Below, piece by piece: positions 4,770 through 54,614 of a DNA stretch of 64,000 bases. The DNA is from Candidatus Thorarchaeota archaeon (GTDB lineage Archaea; Asgardarchaeota; Thorarchaeia; Thorarchaeales; Thorarchaeaceae): contig JAUWOA010000001.1 of assembly GCA_030612365.1 (NCBI GenBank), forward strand, positions 7,184-71,183, written 5' to 3'. Each line of letters opens with the position of its first letter. Position 1 is the first letter of the stretch. The notes beneath the pieces were generated by a model. That model saw nothing but the letters and a program-made list of their open reading frames with translations. It did not search any database and was not told the DNA's origin. The position numbers were made by a program, and so were the translations under genes.

Positions 4770-4774
4770 TTATC

Positions 4775-4990
4775 CTACTACGTGTCCCATTACCTGTCCT
4801 GTCTTACTACCCCTCCTACTGCCTGTCCCACTACCAGTCATGCTACCTGTCCAACTACCTGTCCTATCCTACTACTTATCCTACTGCCTGTCCCACTATC
4901 AGTCATACTACCTGTCCCATTACCTGTCCTATCCTACTATCTATCCTACTGCCTGTCCCACTTCTCATTATGACTCATTGTCCATTACTA
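4775..4990. repeat. Tandem direct repeat of about 3 units of 65-68 bp with a ~9-bp sub-periodicity (tacctgtcc / ctactgcctgtcccact)
   Basis: cctactgcctgtcccact recurs at ~4813, ~4881 and ~4946. tacctgtcc recurs at 4790, 4853, 4862, 4909 and 4921. The track ORFs 4708..5058 and 4743..4973 translate this as a low-complexity P/L/T/C string. Confidence 0.7.
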
Positions 4991-8529: not shown

Positions 8530-9669
8530 TTGAGTGATTTGCTTGGAACACTACTTGAACAGGAAGAGAACGATAGAATGGATTTCAAGGTATCTCTTCC
8601 ATTAGACAAACCGTCTCAGAGGAAGGAACTCGCAAAGGACATCTGTTGTTTCGCCAATTCGCAAGGAGGGCATTTGGTCATTGGAGTTGACAAAGATAGA
8701 ACACGAGTAGGAATACCCCCTGGCTCACTCAACGTGGATGTTATCTTGAAGGTGGCTCGTGAGAGAATTCGGCCTGCTGTTAATACTGCACAGGCTTGGG
8801 AGGAGGTGTGCGAAGAGATTACGTATGGTATTATTGCCATTGACAAAACACACCATGTACACCAGACAATCGAGGGTGTTCACTTCATTAGGGTCAAAGA
8901 TAATTGCATAAGAGCCGACACATCTGCTATTGTAGGTTTGGGGAACGAATCGAGAGAGCATTGGATTGCTGAAACTCGACGTCTACAGGAAGCAGAACGG
9001 CGCGACTTCATTGAAATAGAATCCACACAAGCGGATGCAATACTGAACAGGTTACTTGAGCAATGCTATGGGGACGGACTGGTCGAGCGCCTTTCCTCAT
9101 CGCGTCGGGAGAGGAAATGGCATCTCCGAAGCATGGTTGATTGTCGACTGAATGCATTCAAAGATGCTTGTAGCATAACCCTTGACCCAGAAAGTCCTGA
9201 GATTGATGAGATTCGAAACGACCTTCTACGAACAAGGGCAATAGGGATGTTGGCGATGGCGCATCTTGGAAGTAAGTCTGATGACAAAAACAGGAAAGTA
9301 CGTTTGATACTGGAATACGATCCAGAAGTTGATGCACAACGAGAGAGTGAGTATAAACAGGAGGCAGTACTAGAATGGGCTATGAAATTTAGGAATTACC
9401 AAGAAACAGAAGAGATTCCGACACATGATAGAGGTTTGCTCGAAGAATCTCTCAGATTGCTTGATCGCCTTACGCTGGAGAATGAAATGCGAAGCACTCA
9501 GATACAGCTCCTTAGAGATAATCCCAAGCTTATGTTGCTGTCGTGGGTTCTGCTGAGTTCTCTAGCCGTCGACTCCACATGGGATCTTTCATCTGGTAAC
9601 TCTCGATGGGTCCAGATTATTGAACGTGAACATCGTAACGCATGCAAGCAGACGCACACAAGTGAATAA
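8530..9669 (+). CDS. Schlafen/AlbA_2 ('divergent AAA', AAA_4-like) domain protein
   Basis: N-terminal MDFKVSLPLDKPSQRKELAKDICCFANSQGGHLVIGVDKD matches the AlbA_2/Schlafen core (the E/D-F-K ... ELAK.I.AFAN..GG.L.IGV pattern). Confidence 0.5.
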   Translation: MSDLLGTLLEQEENDRMDFKVSLPLDKPSQRKELAKDICCFANSQGGHLVIGVDKDRTRVGIPPGSLNVDVILKVARERIRPAVNTAQAWEEVCEEITYGIIAIDKTHHVHQTIEGVHFIRVKDNCIRADTSAIVGLGNESREHWIAETRRLQEAERRDFIEIESTQADAILNRLLEQCYGDGLVERLSSSRRERKWHLRSMVDCRLNAFKDACSITLDPESPEIDEIRNDLLRTRAIGMLAMAHLGSKSDDKNRKVRLILEYDPEVDAQRESEYKQEAVLEWAMKFRNYQETEEIPTHDRGLLEESLRLLDRLTLENEMRSTQIQLLRDNPKLMLLSWVLLSSLAVDSTWDLSSGNSRWVQIIEREHRNACKQTHTSE

Positions 9670-42349: not shown

Positions 42350-42477
42350 ATCTAGCAGAGCACTAGCTAGTTCTTGACAAAAAGATACGATTCGATATTG
42401 TTGCCCTGCAATCTGGATTGTGGCTGTGAAGTTGTCACTAGGTTCGATTGTGAGGATCGCCTCACAGAGTGTTCAGA

Positions 42478-43917
42478 TTACAATGAACGGTTATGGTTTG
42501 CTTCAAGGCTGTGAATCGCTGTAACAACCAATTCAATGCAAACGCATGCAGAACCTACCTTACCGGCAATCGACGGCACAGTTCTCCCTTCGTCTCCTGA
42601 TATCAGTTCCTTGATGTAGGTGCCACCTTGAACCTTGAAGTAGCCCTCCAGCTCATGGCTTCTCCTCCTCTTCAATCGCACCTCGTAGATGTGCTTCTTC
42701 CTCGTCAAGTCACTTCTTCTGTGTGCCACTCGCGTTGGAGTTCTCTGGTCAAGGTCAATGTTTGTTAGTTCTCTTTCTGCTCTTCTTACTTCATCATCAG
42801 TCAATTCTCGGTCAGTCTTGATGATGGCTGAATACTCCTTGATGTTCTCAGAAGATTCACTCTTGAGTCGTTGCAGATGTTGTCTGTTAGTAGGTCGCAA
42901 GCCTTCGACTTCTACCTTCTTGCGTGATTTCTTTCTGATTTTCTTCTCCAGCTTGGGAAGATTCAGCGTTCTTACGCGAGGTTTACTAATCTCCACAACA
43001 AATGGACGTCCAGACCCAAGCATCAGAGCGTCCACATCTTCACGTCCTGCAGCATGAAACTTGAAACGGGTGCCTTTGGCGGCTTCTTGGATTGGCAAAC
43101 CAACATACTCCGAAATGGAGTCCGGGTACCTTCTCCCGGTATTGTGGCAAGCGTCACATCCTTTGCCATTGCAATCTGAACAATCCCATCGGCTTTGGGG
43201 GACTCCCACCACCTTCTTTCGATACCTACCGTAGATAAACAGCGGGTTGATTTGCAGCCTAACCAAATCGTTCTGCATATCATAGACTACAACTAGTTCT
43301 GGCTTATCAAAGTCAACGGGTTTGTCAAAGATCGCGCTAACCTGTTTCCCGAACTCCCTATTGAAATCAGACCTCAGGGTTTCTCCGTAGATGAGATTAT
43401 GTTGTCCTTTCAATTCATCTTCTCTTTCCGCGAGGATTGGGTGTGGTATAGACCCTGCGAGGACGGTGTGGAATTCGATGTCTTCTGTGTCCCTCACTGC
43501 CCGTTGAACGATCTCTGGTATTCTGTCGAATGCACAATCAGCGTCCACGGAACAGAGGTAACAGACCTTGCCCTTCTCATAATCCAGTGCTTCCTTCTCA
43601 GCAAGAATCTGCGCTGGAGAGAACATGCCGTTGCCAGCAAGAATCGTAAGTAGTTTCCTGCCTTCGTCCTTCGCACCAGCCTTGATTATCTCATCAGCCT
43701 TCATTGAGAGTATAAGCTTGATTGAATTTCCTCTCTGGTCGTTCGATGTACCGGTACTCAACCAGGCGAACTGCCGACCCAAGCATCTGTCGCATAGAGG
43801 ATATTCCTCAAGTAAGGATGCTGCGGTGTCTAGTATCCCTGGATTCTCTCTACCCACCATGTAGTAGGGCCTCATCGTCACCCGGCATGCACTTTGCACA
43901 TAAAGATGGCTATTCAC
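42478..43917 (-). CDS. pus10: tRNA pseudouridine(54/55) synthase Pus10
   Basis: N-terminal zinc ribbon CDRCLGRQ, THUMP-like region and C-terminal catalytic domain. Its ~480 aa size is typical of archaeal Pus10. Confidence 0.75.
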   Translation of the reverse strand: MNSHLYVQSACRVTMRPYYMVGRENPGILDTAASLLEEYPLCDRCLGRQFAWLSTGTSNDQRGNSIKLILSMKADEIIKAGAKDEGRKLLTILAGNGMFSPAQILAEKEALDYEKGKVCYLCSVDADCAFDRIPEIVQRAVRDTEDIEFHTVLAGSIPHPILAEREDELKGQHNLIYGETLRSDFNREFGKQVSAIFDKPVDFDKPELVVVYDMQNDLVRLQINPLFIYGRYRKKVVGVPQSRWDCSDCNGKGCDACHNTGRRYPDSISEYVGLPIQEAAKGTRFKFHAAGREDVDALMLGSGRPFVVEISKPRVRTLNLPKLEKKIRKKSRKKVEVEGLRPTNRQHLQRLKSESSENIKEYSAIIKTDRELTDDEVRRAERELTNIDLDQRTPTRVAHRRSDLTRKKHIYEVRLKRRRSHELEGYFKVQGGTYIKELISGDEGRTVPSIAGKVGSACVCIELVVTAIHSLEANHNRSL

Positions 43918-45131
43918 TAGACAAGTGGATCTATGTATTTCAACGCCTTTAGACCCAAGACAAACGTTCTGGGATTCCGCATAAGCCGAGCGATCACCTT
44001 GCGCTGCATGTCCATGTCGCCCTCTTGCTTCACAATCTCAACAAGTCCCATAGATTTTGCGTCCTCTATTATGGAGTTCAATCCTTTGTCTGAGAGAACG
44101 GATAATGCTCTTTGAGCTACGTACATCATCCGCAAATCCTTCAAGATTCGGAACCGCCAACCCGCTTCGTAGCGGCTCAACGATTTGTGCGAGCAATCTC
44201 TCTCATCAAGCGCTTTGGTGACAGTCCTTCCCGCAATTTGGGCTGCAATTCCTCCCATAACAACCCCGCCGCCCGTTGTTGCCTTGACCATGCCTGCAGC
44301 ATCACCCACTACAACGACCCCTTGAGCGAAGCATCTTCTTACCGGTAACCCCACGAGCACGATTCCTCCGAATCCTCTCTCTAGAGTTGCACCCCTTAGT
44401 CGCTCTCGTAGAACCGGATGGTGATTGATCGCAGCTTTTAGTCGAGGTTTCGCGCTATTCTTGGCTGCAAGACCAACTCTTGCTTTCCCCTCGCCCATAG
44501 GTATCAACCAAGCGAAGAACCCAGGCGCAGTCTGGCGTCCATAGTACATCTCCACAATGTCATCATCGATATCTACACCTTTCACTTCATACTGGTACGC
44601 AGGAAGCTTGTTCCGCCTTGACACTACCGGTAGGTTCAATGCTTTGGAGATTTGGCACCGGGAGCCTTCTGCATTGACAATGACCTGAGCGCTGCATTCT
44701 GATAGCATTCCTTCTTCTCTAATGCTCAATATCTTGGTTTGGCTTTCACTCGTTCGAATTCCAAGGACCTTCGCCTGAGTACTGATGTCCGCTCCGTTGT
44801 CCCTTGCCCTATCTGCCAACCATGAATCGAACCGCGACCGATTGATTACCAGCGCCTCACGACGACCGCGTTCAATCAATAGCGATTGTCCCGTTGGAGC
44901 GAATATCCTGGCTCCCGAAACCCGATTCTGAATAACATCGGAAGGCGGTTTGAGCCCTAGTAATGCCAATCCGGATGCGCTTAGCAAGCCCGCACAGTGA
45001 TCAGGCTTTCCTATCTCGGGATGCTCTTCAAACACTTGAACCTGATGACCACTTTGAGCGATTTCGGCTGCAGCCAGCAGTCCCGCAGGTCCTGCTCCGA
45101 TGACAATCGCTTCGGGGTCTAGAATAGCCAC
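43917..45131 (-). CDS. Geranylgeranyl reductase family (digeranylgeranylglycerophospholipid reductase-like) FAD-dependent oxidoreductase
   Basis: N-terminal FAD motif AIVIGAGPAGLLAAAEIAQSGHQVQVFEE. GGR-like length of 404 aa. Confidence 0.8.
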   Translation of the reverse strand: MAILDPEAIVIGAGPAGLLAAAEIAQSGHQVQVFEEHPEIGKPDHCAGLLSASGLALLGLKPPSDVIQNRVSGARIFAPTGQSLLIERGRREALVINRSRFDSWLADRARDNGADISTQAKVLGIRTSESQTKILSIREEGMLSECSAQVIVNAEGSRCQISKALNLPVVSRRNKLPAYQYEVKGVDIDDDIVEMYYGRQTAPGFFAWLIPMGEGKARVGLAAKNSAKPRLKAAINHHPVLRERLRGATLERGFGGIVLVGLPVRRCFAQGVVVVGDAAGMVKATTGGGVVMGGIAAQIAGRTVTKALDERDCSHKSLSRYEAGWRFRILKDLRMMYVAQRALSVLSDKGLNSIIEDAKSMGLVEIVKQEGDMDMQRKVIARLMRNPRTFVLGLKALKYIDPLV

Positions 45132-45158
45132 TCTCGACTCATTCCTGATGGCAACCGT

Positions 45159-47339
45159 TCATTTTAAGTTGGACAAACTCGGACATGCCGCATTTGTCCG
45201 TCCAGGAACGACACTGGACTCCATTTGAATCTTGACTATGTTGCGAGCCGCATTCACATCTGCATGCAGACTCATCTGACAGTGAGAACAAAAGAAGTAC
45301 TCCCCTCCCTTTGTTTCTTCAGTATCAAGTGGATTCTGTACTCGAACTCCTCTCTCACCACATCCACTACATATCTGTGATGTCCACGCGGGGTTCACCA
45401 TCCAGACACCACCCCTGTAGTGACCGAGAGCCGCACGTCGGTATCTCACGCCCTGAATCAACAGGCCCCAAAGATTGGTTGAGAGGTTCCAGCTATGGGT
45501 GTGCTTTCCACCAGCACCCTGAAAGAACCGGAGGTCCTCGAAGCACACGGTCTTGACTCTCCTGCTCTCGCAGAACCAGACTGTTTCGCAGGCAACTTGG
45601 TGAGAGATCTCGCGTCCGAGGCGTCTGACCTTTCGCCACACTGACCCCAGCTCCCGTTCTCTTTTCAGAATGTAAGCTGGAGCTATCAGCCCCGGATGCT
45701 TGCTCTCCCAGTTGTTCCTTCTTCTGGCTATCTGCGATGTGAGCTGCTTAGCCCGTTGTCTGAGTTTCTCGCGCTTGATGAACAGATTCTCCCGTCCAAT
45801 AATTCTTTCTTCGTAGTCCCCATCACAATTGCTGATAGAGACTACTACTGGGTTCCTGAGGCCTCTATCTACTCCGGCGTACTTCGTGCGTGATTGAGAT
45901 GGTAATACAGACTTCAACAACTCTTGACTAGGAGGCCTAAAGGGAATTGAGAGGCTAGCCTTCCCTTCTCTAAGCTGGATTGTTGGCGGAGCACACCTTC
46001 GTGTGTCCTTTAACCTTGTGACTTCGGACCTCAGCCGTTCAATCTCACCACAGTCATTGGTTCTTCTTGACGTGAGCTTGGCTAGTGTTCTCTTGGCTTG
46101 ATTAAGAGCAACCATGTTCATCAACTGGCTACTCATATCTTCGAAATGCGAGGCTCTGAACTCAAGGCGAAGTGCTCGCTCGCTATCCCCTCTTCCCAAG
46201 GCCTCTCTCGCTTTCCTCCGTGCTCTCTGAGCCTTATGTGGTAGCCAATTGAGAAACCTGAATCGTACTGTCTGGCTCCTGTAGGGAGATTCCTTGTCGG
46301 TTTCATGACCCAGCACACCAGGTGGGGTCTTCAGGTACAGGATGATCTCATCCTGTCTATCAGGGTCAACCTTGAACCAGTATCCTTGTCCTGTTGTATT
46401 CTCTGTGGAAGCGGAGAAGTCTTCCGTTTGCATTTTAAAGACAGGAGATGTGAAGGGGAAACCATAAGTGTGCCACATCTCGACCTGCCTACACAGGGCA
46501 TGCCTAATCTGGGCACTCTGAGGAGCATCACTTTTGAGGAGCTCCCGAACTCTTGCTCGTTGCTTGTTCCTCCGTCCACCTCCTAGGTGGAATGGGGGGG
46601 TGCTGTTCGTCTGATCGAAAGCGGAGAGAATAAGTTCGTCAAGAGCTCGCCTCAGTTGCTTGCACACTGACAGAGCATAGTGGAATCCTGACCCATTCCT
46701 ACGTGTCACGGAATCGCGAACCCTCCGTACTAGCTCAGGAGGTATCCGTTTATTGCCAACCAACCGGGAGATATTTTCACCTGACTCCTTGAGAATACGC
46801 AGAAGAGCACGCAGGAGTTCTCTGCGTGAGTAGTCAGCAAGGATGATTCGTGCTGCAGCTTCAAGTGCATTCCTGAACATTCTCTCAAAGACAAGTTGTC
46901 CGAACTCGTTGTCCTGTTCCCAGTTCAGGTTTGCCTCTTCACGAAGAATCACATATCCCCGACAGCGGGCAGTATCAAGTTTCCACCCAATGCTTTTAGC
47001 CTGAGCGTACGACTTGTAGACCCTTTGTAGGATTAGGTTGACAGCCTGGATGTATCTATCGAAGTGCTGGGTAAGTATGCTCAGATCAGCTACAGAACAC
47101 TTCTTGCCTGAATTGTTCTGCAAGCCTGCGGGCACTTTGTCAAGCGCTCCTCTTGAAAAGAGGAGATTTGGTTTTCTCCCTTGACCCTTTCGAGCTGTCT
47201 GTCGATTGAATGAGTTCAATGCGAATGTCTGGGTAAGAAAGATTGGTGAAGAGGAAATATAGCTACCATCCATTGTTTGCTGTTTTGACCCTGTTGAGAT
47301 CTTAGACTCGCGGGGATGGCGCCGCGACTTGTTCTTCAC
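45159..47339 (-). CDS. TnpB/Cas12-like RuvC nuclease (726 aa) with ~490-aa N-terminal extension
   Basis: RuvC-I YAGVDRGLRNPVVVSI (D at ~491). RuvC-II ...VKTVCFEDL (E). Zinc finger CSGCG...CSHC. RuvC-III HADVNAARNI (D). All three catalytic positions are intact. Confidence 0.75.
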   Translation of the reverse strand: MKNKSRRHPRESKISTGSKQQTMDGSYISSSPIFLTQTFALNSFNRQTARKGQGRKPNLLFSRGALDKVPAGLQNNSGKKCSVADLSILTQHFDRYIQAVNLILQRVYKSYAQAKSIGWKLDTARCRGYVILREEANLNWEQDNEFGQLVFERMFRNALEAAARIILADYSRRELLRALLRILKESGENISRLVGNKRIPPELVRRVRDSVTRRNGSGFHYALSVCKQLRRALDELILSAFDQTNSTPPFHLGGGRRNKQRARVRELLKSDAPQSAQIRHALCRQVEMWHTYGFPFTSPVFKMQTEDFSASTENTTGQGYWFKVDPDRQDEIILYLKTPPGVLGHETDKESPYRSQTVRFRFLNWLPHKAQRARRKAREALGRGDSERALRLEFRASHFEDMSSQLMNMVALNQAKRTLAKLTSRRTNDCGEIERLRSEVTRLKDTRRCAPPTIQLREGKASLSIPFRPPSQELLKSVLPSQSRTKYAGVDRGLRNPVVVSISNCDGDYEERIIGRENLFIKREKLRQRAKQLTSQIARRRNNWESKHPGLIAPAYILKRERELGSVWRKVRRLGREISHQVACETVWFCESRRVKTVCFEDLRFFQGAGGKHTHSWNLSTNLWGLLIQGVRYRRAALGHYRGGVWMVNPAWTSQICSGCGERGVRVQNPLDTEETKGGEYFFCSHCQMSLHADVNAARNIVKIQMESSVVPGRTNAACPSLSNLK

Positions 47340-47550
47340 CAGTCTTTCACCGTCTGTCTGTTTCGGCCTTTGTATAAAAGGACATACAAAAGAGATGGAA
47401 ATATAGCTACCAGGGTCATTTCATAGCTATATATTTGATATTATTATTTTATTCCAATTGATGAAATTATGCCAAAATTTGTAACTGCTATGGTTCTTCT
47501 TTACTCGCAGCAGTTAGAAATAAATACTTTCGCGAGTACAAGGGGGTGGA

Positions 47551-50500
47551 ATGCAAAAATCAAGAGGGCGACCTCGCAAGCCATTACCTAGACATCCTAA
47601 TCGGGTCATAGCAACTGCAGTCCAGAAAGGTCTGTCTGCTACCCTTGAGATGCAGAGAAGTATCAAGAACAAAAACACCGAAAAAGTTTATGCTAGTTCC
47701 AGAGAAACTTGGTCAGCTGCTAGGAATGTCTACCTTCAGACTAAGCGGCTTCGGAGAGCAGACTTCTCATATATCATGAAGGCTGAACCCAACATGAGAG
47801 GTAATCTTCTCAACATGTTGTACGAGAAGGCCGCAGCTTATGGCAACACTGAAGTCTCCAGAGTTAAGAGATCTAGCGATACAGTAGGTCCGCTCAACAT
47901 CCGTTTCAACGTATGCGGCGCAGCATTACGTGACTTCGCGATGACAATGTACCCCTTCCCGGATCCCGCATTCTTTGGAACACGAATACATCATCATGAT
48001 TCAAAGCGGAAGACCTTCAGGATCATGGGGTATGAAGCAGACTCGTACGGCCCAATGACCCCTCTGATTCATCCCGACATGGTGCCCATGGACTTCGTTG
48101 ATGCAATCAGGCATCACCTCGACTACCTTGCTACTTACTGCTACATCTATGATGTTCCGCCGAGAGACACGGGACGTTACTGGAAACTCCTTCAGCTCCA
48201 TGCACGAGCGTACTTGGACTACATATACTCAGAGCATCTTTATGGAAAAAGAGCCTTCAGAGTTGGCACGAACGCCATACTACAGACGCTCAAGATGGAC
48301 ATCCAGGAACATTACAGTGTCCGCACTGGAAACGCGCCAACCGTCACTGGTTCAATAAACCTCAGGAAGCCATCTTTCTCGATGGCCTTTTTCGAATCAC
48401 AAATCGCAGAAGCAAAGGCTGTCGGCATCGAACATCCCTCTCTGAACGAGCTTGAAAGGATACTCCAAGGCGGATATCGAATCGGAGAACACGAGGAGGA
48501 ACCTTGCCTGACAGAGAATGATGTCAGGCACATCTGGAGAGGAGCACTAAGAAGGAGCAGAAGAATTGGCTCTCAGGTCCACCGGCACATCTCCGACCAA
48601 CTGTGCAGCCCTTGGAGTCTTGCAGAAGCAATTCGCAATGGGGATTCATTAGGCAGCAACGATGGCTATCTCCTATGTTCCGAGGTCTCGGTGAATACCG
48701 GCCTCGGAGCGGGACGGGTCGACATAGTCCTGTTGAGGAGAGAGGTCACACCTGACGGGTTGTGTGTATATTGGAAACCCATCATGGTCTTGGAGATCAA
48801 GACTCGACTAAGCCAATTCTGGGAGTTGACACATGAAACAATCAGGTCCATGTCCAGAAAGAGCCATGGCTTGCTGGACCGGAAAGTCGGAGGTTTTTCC
48901 TTTCGCAGCAGAGTGCTCGACGGCGAGGAGTGGGATGCTATCGTACGTGCCACGCCGAACAAAGGCACTATCAAACAGGTTACGGCGTATACAGACGCTG
49001 TCTGGGGAGAGTACAAGAGAGTAACAGGAACAACACAAGACAATCCGATTCGTGTTGGTACTCTGTTGCTGGATGCGACAGAGAATATTGGTCTGACCCG
49101 CAAGGCCATTCGGAGCCTAGTTATCAATGCGTATGAAACGATGATGAACAAACGAGGAAGCATATCTCGGACACTGATTGAGCCCATCTTGAACGACGAG
49201 TTACCAAGGATTGCTGTCGTGATACATGAACGCGATGAAACGAGTGAGTCAGAAGGGACGTTCATCACCCCCTCTTGGAGGGCTGTCTATGATCCTTTGG
49301 AGAGCGCGAGCAATATGGGCAGAAGGTTCATACTCGCTCTGTTCAGCCAGTCGCGAACCTCAGCTGGCTTCTCAGCAGGATGGATTTCACAGTATTATCA
49401 TGGTCTTCATCTTGTTCGTGACTTGTTGGCGGCCAACTCGGATAGTGGTGTCATCTGGTTGGATCTAGCAGATGAGTTCTCGCACCCTCAGCTTGCTGAG
49501 GCTAGGTTGCGTCTTCGTCCGTACAGCTATCAAGAGAAGGATGTCCTTCGCAGTCAGCCTGAATACATCCGAGAGCTCTTCGAATCGATACGGGTGGTAG
49601 GTCTGCTTCGCGAAACTGACAACTTCCTGTTCAACAAAGGGCAACTACCCAATCTTCGACAACACCTCACTGAAATAGTGAATGGAAGGAAACTGATTAT
49701 CGTGAGCGGCTGGAGTACGCTCCAAGAGGCAACCCCGGAACCACACCGGGCTAGGCTGAATGAGCTTCTCAATGGCATCATTACCCAGCTGCCCAATGGT
49801 AGATCTACAACTGTTCTGTGGTTCGATGCTCCTGTACCAGGAGAGACAAGTTCAGCGGCGTACTCATCCCGCACCCTCCTTCCCTTCTATGACTCTTCGC
49901 GGCTCCGAGGTGAGGTAAATGAGATTATCTGGAACCTGCCAGTCGCTCCAAAGAGCGAAGTCCTACCTCAAGAATGGTGGCTGCCAGTTCTTGCTGCGAC
50001 ACCGTTCCATGATGACATCAGAGCTATTGTCAGTCAGAATGCAGAAGGCTTCGATGTTCGACTAACGCTTGTCCCGCCATTGACGAACTGGTCTAAACGG
50101 TTCCGGAATGAGGGGCTCGGAGTTGTGACAAAAACCGAATCGACTGAAGAAGTAGTACCTTACTCCACAGCGAGAGAGCGAATGAAAGTCCTTGCACTCA
50201 CGTTGCTGCCCTGGCTCGTTGAGCTGTGGCCTTCAGTTCGTCTGGATACAGAAATAGGCTCTCGCATCGTATGTGATCTCCTTGGCGAGATAGAATCCGA
50301 ATATGAACATGGGAGTGAGAGTGTTTCCGTTAAGGTCCGAACTATAGAGGGGGTTCCTGGCAAGGAACCGACCATATTGCAGCGACTTCGCTACCGTCCC
50401 AAAACTAGCCGGGGCGGTAAGTCATTCGCTGCCACCAGTATAAACACTATCAACTCAAGACGGCTCTACCGCGGTCCACGGAAACTGAAGACGAAGCCAC

Positions 50501-51774
50501 GGTGCCTGACCCAAGTCACACCTCTGAGGGCAAGTGTGAACCTGCACGCTGAAAGATTCAACCAAGCTGTGTGGTTTGGCCTACGACTATCCAGCGAGAG
50601 TCTGGGATTCGATTGGATAGCCATTCAAGATGCCAAAGCCCCCTACGGGGTGAGAGTTGGGCTCTTCTATCAACGAGAGGAAGGAACCAAGAGCGAAAAC
50701 CTTGACTGGTCCATCACACGTCTTGATGTAGTTCGGGAATCCGGGTTCAAACTGGACGAATTCGACCAAGTCATTGAGTATGCTTTCACGCGGGTTCACG
50801 AAGCGAAGTCTATGGAGGACTCAAGTCAAGAGCACATGTGGCTCGCATGGAGTAGACCAGACACAGAGTCTAATTGGGCCTTGGCTGGCATGCTTAGCCA
50901 TGTACTTCGGCCCCGCTCAACCACCGTGAGTCTTAGGGCCTTTGCAATCAAGTCTGAAGGAGTATCGACAGCGGCGACCCCTCCCATAGTCGACTTTCCG
51001 GAGAATCTGACAGGTGCTGCAAGACAGGCAATCGCACAGGTCGTCAGGAGGTTGTTGAGAGTGAGATATGTCAGGGTCAGCCTTGCCATGGAGGAAGACG
51101 CATGTGAGGTGCGCTTTGTGGATGAAGGCGACAGAATCCTCCGCAGGGTCAAGATTAGAACAACGGTGGATGTCATTCGACTCTTGCGTTGGCCGATGAC
51201 CAAAGGCAGACCTCTAAGATTGGGGCACGACCTCCGCGTGACCTGGAACCCCTTTCATGACTTCTCACAAGTGCGCCCCGACATTGACTATGGGAAACTC
51301 CGGTATCTGGAACCATTCGTCATCCTGAACCGTTCAGATGACCAGACAGGAACACTACCACCTTTCATGTCAGATGTATTGGCAGAGCATAGACCTGTCA
51401 GTGTTGTGATTCTCCATGATGCGGCAGTCTGTCCTCTCACGGATTTCTCAAAATGGGAGCATGCTAATTGTTGGAGGGTCCAAACCTCGGATAAGGGTTT
51501 TGGATTTGACAATAAGAGTGAGGACGCATTATCTGACAGGCAAGTCTACGCCGTCTTGAAGAAACTGGCCCAGACTGTGGGAGAGAAGAGAGTGCAAATA
51601 GAGTTTGACCACGGACAAGACGAGAACGACCGTCTTGTCTTTCATGAGAGTGAGTTCATGCGGAAACTCTCAAAGGAGTTTAGGCACGTTCCTTTGCATC
51701 CACTGGCCCCGGGACATACGGCAAAGATCAAGCTAATGCTCAGACAACGCAGTCGAGCTAGGAAACGGAGATAG
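47551..51774 (+). CDS. Giant (1407 aa) protein of unknown function containing a PD-(D/E)xK nuclease-like core and an AT-hook-like N-terminus
   Basis: LCSEVSVNTGLGAGRVDIVLLRREVTPDGLCVYWKPIMVLEIKTR fits E ... hhhD ... hhExK. N-terminal RGRPRKP. No Walker A found. Confidence 0.6.
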   Translation: MQKSRGRPRKPLPRHPNRVIATAVQKGLSATLEMQRSIKNKNTEKVYASSRETWSAARNVYLQTKRLRRADFSYIMKAEPNMRGNLLNMLYEKAAAYGNTEVSRVKRSSDTVGPLNIRFNVCGAALRDFAMTMYPFPDPAFFGTRIHHHDSKRKTFRIMGYEADSYGPMTPLIHPDMVPMDFVDAIRHHLDYLATYCYIYDVPPRDTGRYWKLLQLHARAYLDYIYSEHLYGKRAFRVGTNAILQTLKMDIQEHYSVRTGNAPTVTGSINLRKPSFSMAFFESQIAEAKAVGIEHPSLNELERILQGGYRIGEHEEEPCLTENDVRHIWRGALRRSRRIGSQVHRHISDQLCSPWSLAEAIRNGDSLGSNDGYLLCSEVSVNTGLGAGRVDIVLLRREVTPDGLCVYWKPIMVLEIKTRLSQFWELTHETIRSMSRKSHGLLDRKVGGFSFRSRVLDGEEWDAIVRATPNKGTIKQVTAYTDAVWGEYKRVTGTTQDNPIRVGTLLLDATENIGLTRKAIRSLVINAYETMMNKRGSISRTLIEPILNDELPRIAVVIHERDETSESEGTFITPSWRAVYDPLESASNMGRRFILALFSQSRTSAGFSAGWISQYYHGLHLVRDLLAANSDSGVIWLDLADEFSHPQLAEARLRLRPYSYQEKDVLRSQPEYIRELFESIRVVGLLRETDNFLFNKGQLPNLRQHLTEIVNGRKLIIVSGWSTLQEATPEPHRARLNELLNGIITQLPNGRSTTVLWFDAPVPGETSSAAYSSRTLLPFYDSSRLRGEVNEIIWNLPVAPKSEVLPQEWWLPVLAATPFHDDIRAIVSQNAEGFDVRLTLVPPLTNWSKRFRNEGLGVVTKTESTEEVVPYSTARERMKVLALTLLPWLVELWPSVRLDTEIGSRIVCDLLGEIESEYEHGSESVSVKVRTIEGVPGKEPTILQRLRYRPKTSRGGKSFAATSINTINSRRLYRGPRKLKTKPRCLTQVTPLRASVNLHAERFNQAVWFGLRLSSESLGFDWIAIQDAKAPYGVRVGLFYQREEGTKSENLDWSITRLDVVRESGFKLDEFDQVIEYAFTRVHEAKSMEDSSQEHMWLAWSRPDTESNWALAGMLSHVLRPRSTTVSLRAFAIKSEGVSTAATPPIVDFPENLTGAARQAIAQVVRRLLRVRYVRVSLAMEEDACEVRFVDEGDRILRRVKIRTTVDVIRLLRWPMTKGRPLRLGHDLRVTWNPFHDFSQVRPDIDYGKLRYLEPFVILNRSDDQTGTLPPFMSDVLAEHRPVSVVILHDAAVCPLTDFSKWEHANCWRVQTSDKGFGFDNKSEDALSDRQVYAVLKKLAQTVGEKRVQIEFDHGQDENDRLVFHESEFMRKLSKEFRHVPLHPLAPGHTAKIKLMLRQRSRARKRR

Positions 51775-51779
51775 TGGTT

Positions 51780-52403
51780 TCACTTTGAGCGATGGCCTTC
51801 AACTAGGTGAGTGTCCCAAAACTTGTGTGCTCGACGTTTCTCTCCGTCCACCTCGTACTCCTCAAGCCCCAAATAAGTTGTCATTATCATGAACACGGTG
51901 GAGTCCTCAAGGGGGTCCACGACGAAATCCTGAAACTGTTCTCCATGCATACTGATGAGCTTGAAGAGCGACGATGGGAGTGATATTGTGGCTTTCCTTG
52001 CCTCTACACTCTCATACTCGGGGTACAGCTGGCAAAAATAACCCCAGAATCGGGGGTATTCTCCAGTCGGTCCTTGGACCATGTGTACTTCTGTGGGAAC
52101 AAGACAACACCTCTGCTCGACCATTTCTTCATTCCACTGCAACTGCTCATATGGCTCCTCGTAGTCCAAGTCCTCTATTGCGCTCATACTCTCAGCTGCA
52201 ATGAGCTGAAGCTGGAGGGTCTTGAAGTCGAGCTCTTCATCTTCTTCATTCTCATCCCCTTCAGGAAACCAGTCAAGATCGACAATGACTGGAAGACCCA
52301 TCATTCCACGTAGTATGTCCTCTTCCTGCTCACCGAAAGGCAAGGTTTCTGGGTCAAGATCTAGGAGGTCCTCATCTCCTTTCAAATCATCGGATTGCCC
52401 CAA
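51780..52403 (-). CDS. Highly acidic hypothetical protein (207 aa, Asp/Glu-rich)
   Basis: DEDLLDLDPE..EGDENEEDEELDF.. is distributed over the whole length. It is convergent with the giant gene. Confidence 0.4.
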   Translation of the reverse strand: MGQSDDLKGDEDLLDLDPETLPFGEQEEDILRGMMGLPVIVDLDWFPEGDENEEDEELDFKTLQLQLIAAESMSAIEDLDYEEPYEQLQWNEEMVEQRCCLVPTEVHMVQGPTGEYPRFWGYFCQLYPEYESVEARKATISLPSSLFKLISMHGEQFQDFVVDPLEDSTVFMIMTTYLGLEEYEVDGEKRRAHKFWDTHLVEGHRSK

Positions 52404-52868
52404 GACATGTCACTCCCTTTGTCAGTCTTACAGAGGTGCTGTTGTACTTAAGGTTGGCCGTATCATAATGGTTGCATACCCCATGGATTAACCAGCAGTT
52501 CGGGCGTATCTCTTCCATCCAGCATGTTCTGGATATTGGCTCCCCTAGTCACCCTAACATGTCTAGGATCGTCCAACTTCTTGGCAGCCACCCTTCCTGC
52601 TACGTAATGTAGCTAGTTCGCTTTGGCTGCAGCCGCTGTGGTTTCGTTACCATGAATGGGTTTAGAACGATATCGCCCAAATGTGCAAGTGCATCGGTAT
52701 ATCCGCTCGCCGCCTACAGCGGGAGTTTCGTGATGCTGTTGTCTTGGCTGGCTTGATAATGAGTATGTACGTTCATATTCGAAAATGTTCAATATTGTCT
52801 AAGTTTGGTGCAGCTGTTTGCAACCCTTTATTATCTCTCGCCTAGGTTGGAGTTGAAGAGCTGACTGG

Positions 52869-53249
52869 ATGGTCAAAACGATGGCTAAACGCGAATTCAG
52901 ATACAAGCAAGTTATCGCGGTCAGAACCGATTTGGGCATGAGTCGCGGTAAGATAGCTGTTCAGGTGGCTCACGGTGCAGTGACTGCTGCTGAGCGGACA
53001 AGGGTTAGAGCGCCTGAGCTCTGGAAACGCTGGCTCAATGAAGGTCAGAAGAAGGTGGCTGTTAAAGTTGGCTCAGAAGAAGATCTGCTAAAACTTGAGA
53101 TTGTAGCAGCATCCAAGAATCTTCCCATCGCTCTCATCAGAGATGCAGGAATGACTGAACTTCCTCCCAGCACTGTCACAGTCTTAGGAATAGGCCCCGC
53201 GAAGATTGAAGCTATCGATCTTGTAACTGGTGAACTCAAGCTGCTCTGA
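52869..53249 (+). CDS. pth2: Peptidyl-tRNA hydrolase, archaeal/eukaryotic type
   Basis: YKQVIAVRTDLGMSRGKIAVQVAHGAV...IALIRDAGMTELPPSTVTVLGIGP. Confidence 0.85.
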   Translation: MVKTMAKREFRYKQVIAVRTDLGMSRGKIAVQVAHGAVTAAERTRVRAPELWKRWLNEGQKKVAVKVGSEEDLLKLEIVAASKNLPIALIRDAGMTELPPSTVTVLGIGPAKIEAIDLVTGELKLL

Positions 53250-53261
53250 GGAGGATTTCAC

Positions 53262-54614
53262 TTGATTGAGCCCCATCCACTCGAGGTCCTAGTGGGAATG
53301 GAGCTCTACAGCACTGAAGCAAAGGGTGTCGGAGGACGGCTGAAGACGCGCTTTGAGGATTTCCGCGTCGAAGAGATACTGCCAGACGGGAGGAATCTGG
53401 AGCTACGGGAATCGCTTGATGAGTCAGACCCAACAGCCACAGCCGACTTCACGATTGACGGGGATAAACGGAAATACGTTCGATTCACCATCCAGAAACT
53501 CGGCTTGTCCACGATGGATGTTTCCACAATACTCGCCACAGAATTGGGCATCCCAAGGCATCTAGTTTCCTATGCTGGCCTGAAGGATAAGCGTGCTTTG
53601 ACTGTGCAATCCATGTCAGTACCCGCTGGAGCATCTCAATCACTTGCGAAACTCAAACTCTTCAAAATGGCAATTCGGGATCTGGAGTACGTGCGACAAC
53701 CCGTTCAGATAGGTGATCTCTGGGGAAACCGGTTTGCTATTCTTCTAAGGGAACTTGAATCCAGCTGCACAGACTCCATGGGCACCGCGCAAGAATTGGC
53801 GGGCAAATTCATTCTCAACTACTTTGGCGTTCAACGGTTTGGTGTAACCCGACCGGACACACACACGGTGGGAAAGGCTGCCGTAAAGGGCGATTTTGAG
53901 GGTGCTCTACGCATCATGCTGACGGTCACAAGTGAGTATGAATCGGAAGAGCTCACAGGAGCTCGTCAGGACATTGCACAGAACATGACTGTGACCCAGA
54001 AAATACTGGATTGCTTCCCAAGGGGATTGCGACATGAACGTATCGTGCTTGGACATCTCATGAAACATCCCAGGGACTATCACAGAGCATTTACCAAGAT
54101 ACCTTCACGAATTCAAACCTTTTTTGTGCACTCTTATCAGTCATATCTGTTCAATCGATTGATTAGCCAACGCCTGAGATCTGGGCTTTCCATACAGTCC
54201 CCCGTGCCGGGCGATTTCTTGATACAGTTGGACCAAGCGCATTCGGGTCGTGATTCTTGGCTTTTCGTGACCGAACGGAACCTAGAACAACGCAGAGAAC
54301 TTGTGAGTTCAGATGCATATGGTTTGGCTGCCCCGTTACCTGGATTCTCCACAAGAACACCTCCATCCCTGCAATCAGAGATGCTTAAAACAATACTAAA
54401 GGATGAAGGGATAACCCTCATGGATTTCAGAAGCGCAGAAAGCAAAGCACTGGCTTCTCCTGGGAGTTTGCATCTAATCTCAATCAAGGTCCCTGAACTC
54501 AATCCGCAATGTGACGATGATGGGCTATGGCTCCAGTTCAACCTTAGGAAGGGGTCGTACGCAACTGTAGTTATGCGAGAGATAATGAAAAATCATCCCA
54601 TAAACAGAATCTGA
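53262..54614 (+). CDS. truD: tRNA pseudouridine synthase TruD/Pus7
   Basis: RLKTRFEDFRVEEIL ... YAGLKDKRALTVQ ... YFGVQRFG are TruD hallmarks. Confidence 0.8.
   Translation: MIEPHPLEVLVGMELYSTEAKGVGGRLKTRFEDFRVEEILPDGRNLELRESLDESDPTATADFTIDGDKRKYVRFTIQKLGLSTMDVSTILATELGIPRHLVSYAGLKDKRALTVQSMSVPAGASQSLAKLKLFKMAIRDLEYVRQPVQIGDLWGNRFAILLRELESSCTDSMGTAQELAGKFILNYFGVQRFGVTRPDTHTVGKAAVKGDFEGALRIMLTVTSEYESEELTGARQDIAQNMTVTQKILDCFPRGLRHERIVLGHLMKHPRDYHRAFTKIPSRIQTFFVHSYQSYLFNRLISQRLRSGLSIQSPVPGDFLIQLDQAHSGRDSWLFVTERNLEQRRELVSSDAYGLAAPLPGFSTRTPPSLQSEMLKTILKDEGITLMDFRSAESKALASPGSLHLISIKVPELNPQCDDDGLWLQFNLRKGSYATVVMREIMKNHPINRI

Follow-up and report, generated by a model that had tools for sequence, protein, structure and literature searches.

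Elements of the IS607 family are compact, about 2 kb in length, and carry tnpA and tnpB. Asgard archaea reportedly possess TnpBs associated with an Asgard Cas1 (aCas1), which Makarova and colleagues are said to have described in 2020. The gene considered here is TnpB-like and comes from a Candidatus Thorarchaeota archaeon (GenBank assembly GCA_030612365.1, contig JAUWOA010000001.1, positions 7,184 to 71,183 of the forward strand; this whole stretch of 64,000 nt is called the window, and coordinates refer to it unless a locus is named). An earlier note, made from the letters and a list of open reading frames (ORFs), saw in it an orphan: an enlarged nuclease amongst housekeeping genes, with no transposon context and no room for a guide RNA at its 3' end. 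I argue that it very probably encodes the RNA-guided nuclease, of the TnpB type, of an IS607-like transposon that is specific to Thorarchaeota and is present here (45154–52828) as a non-autonomous copy. The seeming orphan would then be a transposon gene, with its guide sitting in the 27 bp that had seemed to be missing.

According to the established model of TnpB and its omega RNA, the flank next to the RNA scaffold acts as the guide, and in elements of the IS607 type termini and targets alike carry GG, as a rule, while repeats and duplications are absent (review PMC13565253). The present element resembles them in that full copies have a TnpA with a MerR-type helix-turn-helix (HTH) and a resolvase domain at the left end (many copies are without tnpA), in its lack of inverted repeats, in GG at ends and targets (with one unexplained 13-nt repeat, in locus L046), and in the position of tnpB at the right end, where a scaffold overlaps the 3' end of the ORF and is followed by a hypervariable flank. 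Unlike the 2-kb elements, it measures 7–9 kb, and a conserved gene of 1400–1800 codons, oriented the other way, separates tnpA from tnpB. Its TnpB, of about 700 residues, has a family-specific N-terminal region of about 480; its RNA matches no Rfam family (RAGATH-18 included); and tnpB begins with a further module that resembles the scaffold. With the aCas1-associated TnpBs (PMC10691335) it shares the Asgard lineage, a TnpB beside a protein with a domain that here is predicted to be Cas1-like, and a hypervariable stretch after a conserved T downstream of tnpB; it differs from them in that its giant protein is not recognised as Cas1 by sequence and in that a serine recombinase is present.

Judged by its sequence, the object appears to be a new, enlarged variant of the IS607-type OMEGA transposon, with a Cas1-like giant cargo and a candidate self-targeting guide; it may coincide with one of the published 'Cas1H-Asgard' groups. 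It is unusual among OMEGA elements: the TnpB is almost twice the usual size, the RNA is family-specific, and the giant protein has Cas1-like, Cas4/RecB-like and RecA-like predicted folds. A relative of CRISPR effectors and a relative of the CRISPR integrase in one Asgard transposon would bear on how type V systems and adaptation modules were assembled. If the reading is true, a protein of Cas1 fold and an ancestor of Cas12 are joined in one Asgard element.

Extent and Mobility of the Element

Both boundaries are fixed by alignment with loci L085 and L087, which lie at another genomic site: the window is matched at 92% DNA identity over 45154–52622 and 52704–52828 (blastn), and the flanks are unrelated. 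The giant protein of L085–87 is 90% identical to that of the window, and the gene set is the same. At a third genomic site, L088 and L089 have the same gene order, a giant protein 75% identical, and 87% DNA identity over 48502–52553. Another pair, L008 and L046, is 88% identical with different flanks. From its left end, the element of the window runs through a 207-residue gene, a 1407-residue gene of opposite orientation and the TnpB-like gene to the right end (Table 1).

On the right, DNA homology across 69 loci ends at 45154, which is 5 nt past the stop codon (...AATGAACGGT, then the junction), and in essentially every locus similarity ends at the equivalent of 45153–45156. The common terminus reads ...CCAGTGYCGTTCCTGGNCGGACAG-CTTGATGTCCAAG-TTTGTCCAAnTTACAAT(G/C)AACGGT, beyond which the sequences are unrelated. 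The left end can be aligned with those of nine copies (L085, L064, L008, L024, L046, L082, L069, L018 and L057), giving the consensus A[AT]GGG-N6-ACAGCT...AACTTRG.CAA..TTGGACATTTATTAGG. A repeat search found no terminal inverted repeats at the ends of the element, and because the family has none, its ends are invisible without comparison. The element closes on the right with ...AACGG(T) and meets its left flank at A[AT]GG/G (the slash marks the junction), GG dinucleotides that fit the published IS607 rule (PMC13565253); since the GG core is common to element and target, the position of either boundary is uncertain by about 4 nt.

Two features of the ends are peculiar to some loci. In L046 the 13-nt sequence GGTTCCGTAACTG occurs twice, just inside the left end (about 681–693 of that locus) and directly after the right end (9290–9302), and the window has 10 matches in 12 between GGTTGCAAACAG (52814–52825) and GGTTGCCATCAG (45145–45156). 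Eight loci were compared to see whether the flank after the right end is in general a copy of the left end. L046 bears this out (13/13), the window does so in part (10/12), and the other six show no such match; the rule was rejected. Separately, five loci (L026, L033, L038, L047, L053) form a sub-clade with a common right-end flank, C(A/T/C)GGTGGCTTAGC, next to a tRNA (tRNA-Lys(CTT) in L033, L047 and L053). Their terminal hairpin is shortened, and they look like an orthologous, perhaps fixed, insertion.

A protein search with the nuclease gave 172 matches. Among the 120 listed, most are near full length, about 700 residues, at 43–58% identity; one reaches 90%, and the source, wherever named, is always Candidatus Thorarchaeota. 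Scanning one genome per species produced 77 loci, nearly all labelled Thorarchaeota, and a scan of viral contigs found no relatives of the family. When residues 1–485 were compared with 1.84 billion representative proteins, only 32 were found, all at 34–51% identity, as would be expected of members and fragments of one family, so the N-terminal extension is family-specific. The nuclease family appears from these searches to be essentially confined to Thorarchaeota. Within that group it is abundant, with 3–10 diverged copies per metagenome-assembled genome (MAG) and 10 loci in CSMAG_2458 alone. The host genes flanking the gene are different at every locus inspected, and contigs frequently break within the gene itself.

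In complete relatives the left end is followed by tnpA (a serine recombinase with a MerR-HTH), the giant gene in opposite orientation, the tnpB-like gene and the right end. A resolvase domain (PF00239, E 3.6e-24) with a MerR-type HTH stands at the left end of L018; full-length recombinase genes of 177–208 codons directly follow the left end there and in L023, L046, L054, L069 and L082, and eight more loci keep remnants. Such a MerR-HTH/resolvase gene encodes the transposase by which the IS607 family is recognised. In the subfamily of the window, tnpA would have been replaced by the 207-residue ORF, which recurs at the matching position in L085–L089, finds no match in Pfam, PADLOC or PDB sequences, and has no tblastn match in L001–L084. 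To move, these copies would need a recombinase acting in trans, unless it is the giant Cas1-like protein that moves them, which is conceivable.

An Omega-RNA-Like Scaffold at the Right End

The last 75 nt or so of the tnpB-like ORF, continuing to 5 nt past its stop codon, have the character of a structured RNA. Hairpin H1 shows compensatory variants (xCCAG/CTGGx vs xCCAC/GTGGx); its loop, (G)YCGTTS, is complementary to the terminal SAACGRY, making a pseudoknot; and helix H2 is found as GGAC/GTCC, GTAC/GTAC, GCAC/GTGC and GGGC/GCCC, together with a variable inner hairpin. Over 56 sequences, 91.9% of cells are paired, as compared to 25–44% when the partners are slid; 13 pairs have changed on both sides, and none of 500 shuffles reaches the observed values. 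Synonymous differences, counted over codons with unchanged amino acid, drop from a background of about 0.42 to 0.16–0.28 over the final 40 codons. Directly after ...AACGGT, the flank is unrelated in every locus. A search for omega scaffolds with covariance models, proposed in the earlier note, found no Rfam match; a model built from the family itself (R1) has a single strong match in the window, at the right end, with 75.7 bits. That the object is a mobile element with an omega-type RNA is well supported. The claim that a 3'-overlapping omega RNA could not be accommodated is contradicted by the covarying scaffold inside the 3' end of the ORF: by analogy with the established model, the 27-bp spacer and the first bases of the gene beyond it would serve as the guide position.

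The mechanism that I propose runs as follows. The end of the tnpB ORF (about 75 nt) plus 5 nt would encode the guide-proximal part of the omega RNA, with its hairpin loop forming a pseudoknot with the terminal GAACGGU, and transcription would continue into the flank, providing as guide the 16–20 nt adjoining the right end. The complex of nuclease and RNA would cut the empty site left by excision, as other OMEGA systems do, recognising a G-rich motif to the left of the element together with the guide match, and copying from the sister chromosome would then restore the element.

Another strongly covarying helix, of 6 bp, lies within the gene (Table 1). Its pair types are GC28/AU15/UA8, GC43/UA11/AU8 and AU29/GC24, and it falls in a stretch, 45522–45699, where synonymous differences are suppressed (0.19–0.25 against the same background). 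Perhaps the omega RNA is unusually long and this is part of its upstream portion; otherwise it would be a separate element. A long-range helix suggested by RNAalifold (45712–45707 with 45218–45213) was discarded: there is next to no covariation in it, and it competes with H1, which is well supported.

Additional strong copies of R1 (48–80 bits) occur in other loci at places other than the 3' end of a large tnpB gene: L077 17670–17744 (−), L006 18006–18080 (−), L008 16148–16225 (+) and L053 47–125 (−). The copy in L006 is just upstream of a gene for a canonical IS605-type TnpB of 402 residues. They may be stand-alone omega RNAs or remnants. In the window, a weak match (42437–42491, plus strand, 17.2 bits, E 0.013) overlaps the last codons of Pus10 and ends in an exact ACAATGAACGGT (42480–42491). 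With only 17 bits it was rejected as an intact right end, and is at best a decayed remnant or solo right end, or else chance.

An Enlarged TnpB with an Intact Catalytic Site

The ORF (45159–47339, minus strand, GTG start, 726 residues) was confirmed. It contains a split RuvC with a D-E-D triad, in the motifs GVDRG (D491), CFEDL (E601) and HADVNAARNI (D694), and a CxxC...CxxC finger of the C4/TNB type (C657, C660, C684, C687) between RuvC-II and RuvC-III. Triad and cysteines are invariant in an alignment of 27 family members, in which the N-terminal 480 residues or so are likewise well conserved. The only Pfam match is to PF07282 (Cas12f1-like TNB), E 1.5e-12. The description of the protein as an enlarged TnpB/Cas12-like nuclease with intact motifs thus holds, and alignment disclosed no loss of the catalytic residues, which the earlier note had named as grounds for abandoning it.

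An AlphaFold2 model (pLDDT 76.5) has the overall WED-REC-RuvC-TNB fold. Foldseek places Cas12f 8hr5 at the top (E 2.6e-12), with matches also to TnpB 8h1j (1.3e-7), ISFba1 TnpB 8iaz, Fanzor2 9b0l and structures of Cas12k. The extra mass is predicted to consist of an enlarged helical REC region (about 70–290) and a helical insertion (about 366–444), and residues 1–32 are predicted to be disordered. Sequence-profile matches to solved structures are restricted to the RuvC/TNB part. With ISDra2 TnpB and Cas12f (8h1j, 8hr5, 7c7l) the protein shares the D-E-D spacing, the C4 finger, the order of domains and, in its RNA, a guide-proximal pseudoknot; it differs in a REC that is roughly doubled and in the insertion before RuvC, and similarity in sequence does not reach beyond the last 250 residues or so. 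The nuclease is an enlarged relative of TnpB and Cas12f with an intact catalytic site, and by analogy it would cleave DNA under the guidance of RNA.

In Fanzor and pro-Fanzor (RIIr) TnpBs the RuvC-II glutamate has moved to about 6 residues before the zinc finger (review PMC13565253). E601, 56 residues before C657, has the canonical position, and that identity was rejected. Identity with TldR was rejected as well: TldRs have lost RuvC residues and occupy a fixed location in the host, whereas here the triad is invariant and the element is mobile and multi-copy.

A Second Module at the 5' End

Model R1 also matches, weakly, the first 75 nt or so of the tnpB ORF, in the window and in five other loci. 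The hairpin there (H1') has in other loci the stems CCAG/CTGG, GCGG/CCGC, CCCGG/CCGGG and TCCGG/CCGGA, and its loops, CCATCC/CCGTCC/TCGTCC/TCATCC, are complementary to the GGATGG/GGACGG/GGACGA/GGATGA of a conserved ACAATGGAYGRY. This geometry of hairpin and pseudoknot is that of the right-end scaffold. In 32 loci 91.6% of cells are paired, against 32–46% when slid (pair types CG16/UA15, GC14/AU10/GU5 and GC19/CG11), and synonymous change is suppressed in the first 40 codons. A closing helix of 9–14 bp, present in about 20 of 42 loci and shifting in sequence between subfamilies, joins the start-codon region to the bases just past a guide-like stretch, which it bounds at 12–16 nt; the cross-locus control for this helix is uninformative, related loci sharing GATGA/TCATC.

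The guide-like stretch (site B) has a counterpart upstream (site A). Across loci, the 10–20 nt after the 5' module recur exactly 116–155 nt upstream, 10–17 nt from a TATA box; in the window, the box follows site A at a distance of 17 nt, and a conserved [CT]TGNT stands before the site. The box of the window, TTTTATA, would by its sequence be the promoter of the gene, and TTAAATA or TTATATA stands at the corresponding place in other loci. The sequence of the two sites is different in nearly every copy and the arrangement is kept, in further clades as well. Matches of at least 9 nt between the sites of one locus are found in 26 of 33 loci as compared to 20 of 854 cross-locus controls, and matches of at least 12 nt in 15 of 33 as compared to none of 854. 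In the window, a repeat finder ranks the exact 16-nt repeat first among the direct repeats of 44000–54000, and the 12-mer of site B is found nowhere else besides site A. A 9-bp inverted repeat, ATATAGCTA and TAGCTATAT (47423–47431 and 47401–47409, minus strand), has its 3' arm within site A and is probably a by-product of the near-palindromic guide of this copy. The 211-bp upstream region (47340–47550), where the earlier note suspected a guide, thus appears to hold the target-like site instead.

I suggest tentatively, at somewhat under an even chance, that an active transposon-borne TnpB here regulates itself by RNA guidance, its mRNA leader and first 25 codons serving as a miniature omega scaffold, as a repressor of its own promoter and of translation. 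The 5' end of the tnpB mRNA would comprise a second, smaller scaffold and a guide of 12–16 nt identical to the site by its own TATA box. Loaded with this RNA, the protein would bind site A and throttle its own transcription, and the 5' fold would also sequester the start codon, affording translational control. As with TldR and the tracr-L of Cas9, a short guide would send a TnpB or Cas protein to a promoter, and the target of tracr-L is likewise its own promoter; unlike those cases, the nuclease is catalytically intact and transposon-borne, the guide lies in its own mRNA leader and first codons, and repression is surmised. No description of a TnpB arrangement with an mRNA-embedded guide matching its own promoter was found in the searchable literature. 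If the suggestion is true, RNA-guided transcriptional control already exists inside active transposons, and homing nucleases are linked to transcription factors guided by RNA (TldR, Cas12m, tracr-L) by a natural intermediate. If functional, it offers a compact guide architecture, naturally of seed length, that is easily tested and engineered.

Weighing the Alternatives

The earlier note considered a domesticated, immobile TnpB derivative that serves the host with a guide encoded elsewhere, and the intact catalytic site, the housekeeping neighbours, the want of a TnpA in the window, and the conservation of the family over its full length at 43–58% identity would all suit it. It is nonetheless very improbable, given several diverged copies per MAG at sites that differ in every genome, near-identical elements with different flanks, defined ends, a serine recombinase in relatives, and a hypervariable flank after the right-end scaffold, just as mobile OMEGA elements have it; with ends and TnpA found in the wider family, that option fails. 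Another of its proposals, a novel Cas12-like effector, taken here as a type V CRISPR effector with an array outside the window, draws on the size of the protein, between TnpB and Cas12, and on Cas12f as best match in sequence and fold. I give it next to no chance: there is no array in the window, to which the search for arrays was confined, nor any Cas Pfam domain among the called genes of the inspected loci, and the guide position with its hypervariable flank is transposon-like. Altae-Tran et al. (2023; PMC10691335), who treat Asgard Cas1-associated TnpBs, suggested Cas1 as transposase. On that model of an 'aCas1-TnpB transposon' the giant Cas1-like protein would move the element, and tnpA would be an occasional passenger or nested element. 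This I consider distinctly unlikely. Terminal inverted repeats were not found; besides L046, a junction match is seen only in the window, and there in part, with none in the six other two-ended loci; and the left-end copy of the L046 repeat falls inside the conserved left end. Where present, tnpA is exactly at the left end, the canonical IS607 position, and the ends obey the GG rule. The motif GTTCACTCA, published as lying downstream of tnpB in aCas1-TnpB loci (PMC10691335), was absent here in a motif search, and there are deletion derivatives without the giant gene (L008; L004/5). An IS607 recombinase makes a transposase role of the giant protein unnecessary, though still possible. Some results do weigh against a mobile OMEGA element of the IS607 type. 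The earlier remark that TnpA, IS ends and a CRISPR array are wanting failed only as to the ends: the 64-kb window contains no recombinase gene or TnpA, so the mobility of this copy is deduced from its sister copies. The NCBIfam model guided_TnpB (NF040570) scores 68.9 bits, under its cutoff of 100, and aligns with residues 457–702 only; the nuclease would thus seem a divergent TnpB, sharing the core and not the N-terminal 480 residues. Rfam at the gathering threshold finds in the whole window two tRNAs and no omega or RAGATH-18 family, and at E<=10 over 45050–45800 no family at all; RAGATH-18 and the other Rfam omega-RNA families were rejected as identities, as their covariance models gave no match. 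The omega RNA is deduced from sequence, and its expression is presumed. Finally, A[AT]GG, to the left of the element, resembles [CT]TGNT, ahead of site A, without being identical to it, so that a target-adjacent motif is not defined.

Self-regulation faces difficulties of its own. Seven of the 33 loci have no exact match of at least 9 nt between sites A and B, and in L010 and L012 site A matches at full guide length (16 nt after TGGT), making self-cleavage possible instead of mere binding. Both facts are congenial to another explanation, in which the repeat and the 5' fold are not a guide and its target: the fold would exert translational control only, perhaps as an RNA mimic bound by the protein, and local gene conversion would preserve the identity of the repeat, or the repeat would be of use to some other factor. 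The closing helix does bury the start codon in 9–14 bp, and the repeats are only about 140 nt apart, so that conversion could occur. I regard this as unlikely, though deserving to be taken seriously. The repeat differs per subfamily yet starts exactly at the scaffold junction and has a fixed place by the TATA box after [CT]TGNT; conversion alone leaves identity at precisely these limits unexplained, and protein sites would not vary freely. The 5' module, which repeats the guide-proximal hairpin-pseudoknot geometry of the omega RNA with compensatory changes of its own, also weighs against it.

The Giant Partner Protein

Homologues of the giant gene are present in 40 loci, divergent from and directly upstream of tnpB in 35 and on the same strand in 5, which bears out the suspicion that the nuclease is tied to its giant neighbour; the gene is absent from deletion derivatives such as L008. 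Neither the whole protein nor segments of it match Pfam, PADLOC or PDB sequences, no sequence model recognises it as Cas1, and a profile search for distant relatives returned the same 45 proteins only. Its 48 source-named relatives in the databases are all 'hypothetical proteins' of Thorarchaeota, none with a Pfam domain. The fold prediction, which excludes the C-terminal region (50251–51774), suggests a Cas1-like helical domain, a PD-(D/E)xK domain and a RecA-like domain. Invariant E378, D391 and K417 make up a motif of the PD-(D/E)xK type, and invariant E79/E101, H174 and D184 are candidates for the metal-binding E-H-D/E active site of Cas1. In the C-terminal half (50251–51774, plus strand) a conserved H..C..H..C motif, H-x4-CP...H-x2-CW, looks like a zinc site; the length of this region varies greatly among subfamilies (proteins of 1400–1870 residues).

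Like a casposon, the element would be built around a Cas1-fold protein; unlike one, it has no inverted repeats, family B polymerase or regular target duplication, and it has a serine recombinase and a TnpB. The giant protein might process or repair the break made by TnpB, a role that is equally open as against that of a transposase. In L001 (3838–9781), L002, L009 and L066, the giant gene is on the same strand as tnpB, upstream of it, and is followed by a gene for a Rad51/KaiC-like ATPase (PF08423, E 1.5e-14) and an ORF of 233 residues; the ATPase recalls the RecA-like domain that the fold prediction gives to the giant protein.

Insertion Site and Other Features of the Window

Table 1. Coordinates of the element and its parts.
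Feature	Position	Strand	Description or evidence
Whole mobile element	45154..52828	−	7675 bp; blastn vs L085/L087
Candidate homing guide	45134..45153	−	TTGCCATCAGGAATGAGTCG; flank read through from scaffold; spacer and first GGR bases
Right end / 3' omega-RNA-like scaffold	45154..45231	−	Covariation; covariance model R1, 75.7 bits
Scaffold H1	45219-45214 with 45205-45200	−	Hairpin
Scaffold pseudoknot	45212-45206 with 45160-45154	−	Loop-terminus pairing
Scaffold H2	45199-45196 with 45174-45171	−	Helix
TnpB-like RNA-guided nuclease gene (putative)	45159..47339	−	726 residues; D491, E601, D694; C4 zinc finger
Internal covarying helix	45617..45694 (45694-45689 with 45622-45617)	−	6 bp
Site B, guide-like 12 nt	47253..47264	−	AGCTATATTTCC, directly 3' of 5' module
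5' omega-like module	47265..47341	−	Codons 1-25; R1 matches and covariation
5' hairpin H1'	47327-47322 with 47313-47308	−	TCGCGG-cgccatcc-CCGCGA in the window
5' pseudoknot	Loop 47320-47314 with GGATGGT 47271-47265	−	Complementarity
5' closing helix	47341-47333 with 47252-47244	−	Start-codon strand TGGTGAAGA; complementarity
TATA-like box of putative tnpB-like promoter	47373..47379	−	TTTTATA, about 34 nt upstream of GTG; read from sequence
Site A, target-like	47397..47412	−	TGGT and exact copy of site B (47408-47397)
Giant cargo gene	47551..51774	+	1407 residues; divergent from tnpB-like gene
Acidic 207-residue ORF	51780..52403	−	Subfamily passenger; position of tnpA in other copies
Left end	52770..52828	−	AAGGG TTGCAA ACAGCTGC...AACTTAGACAATATTGAACATTT; aligned with left ends of other copies

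The neighbours of the element are housekeeping genes that point to an archaeon as host: Pus10, geranylgeranyl reductase (GGR), PTH2 and TruD. As stated in the earlier note, the stop codon of the tnpB-like gene lies 27 bp from the start of GGR, and the insertion interrupts a block that runs from GGR to pth2 and truD. The start of GGR is a GTG at 45131. Comparison of synteny supplies the empty site: in L028 these genes are contiguous, and CCTAGGCGAGAG is conserved next to the insertion point, from which the site before insertion is deduced to have been ...GAGAGATAATAAGG/TTGCCATCAGGAATGAGTCGAGAGTG.

The insertion separates a TATA-like ATAATAA from the GTG start of GGR by 7.7 kb (45129–45167 and 52829–52869). 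GGR may now be transcribed from the end of the element or by read-through, and, since this gene of lipid biosynthesis is cut off from its TATA-like box, its expression in the host may be affected. The right end itself contains a TATA-like TTAAAAT (45161–45167), about 33 nt upstream of the GGR start.

The window has a single tandem array, at 4773–4988. Its CCTGTCCTACTA-like units recur with periods of 12 and 65 nt, and it has no relation to the element.

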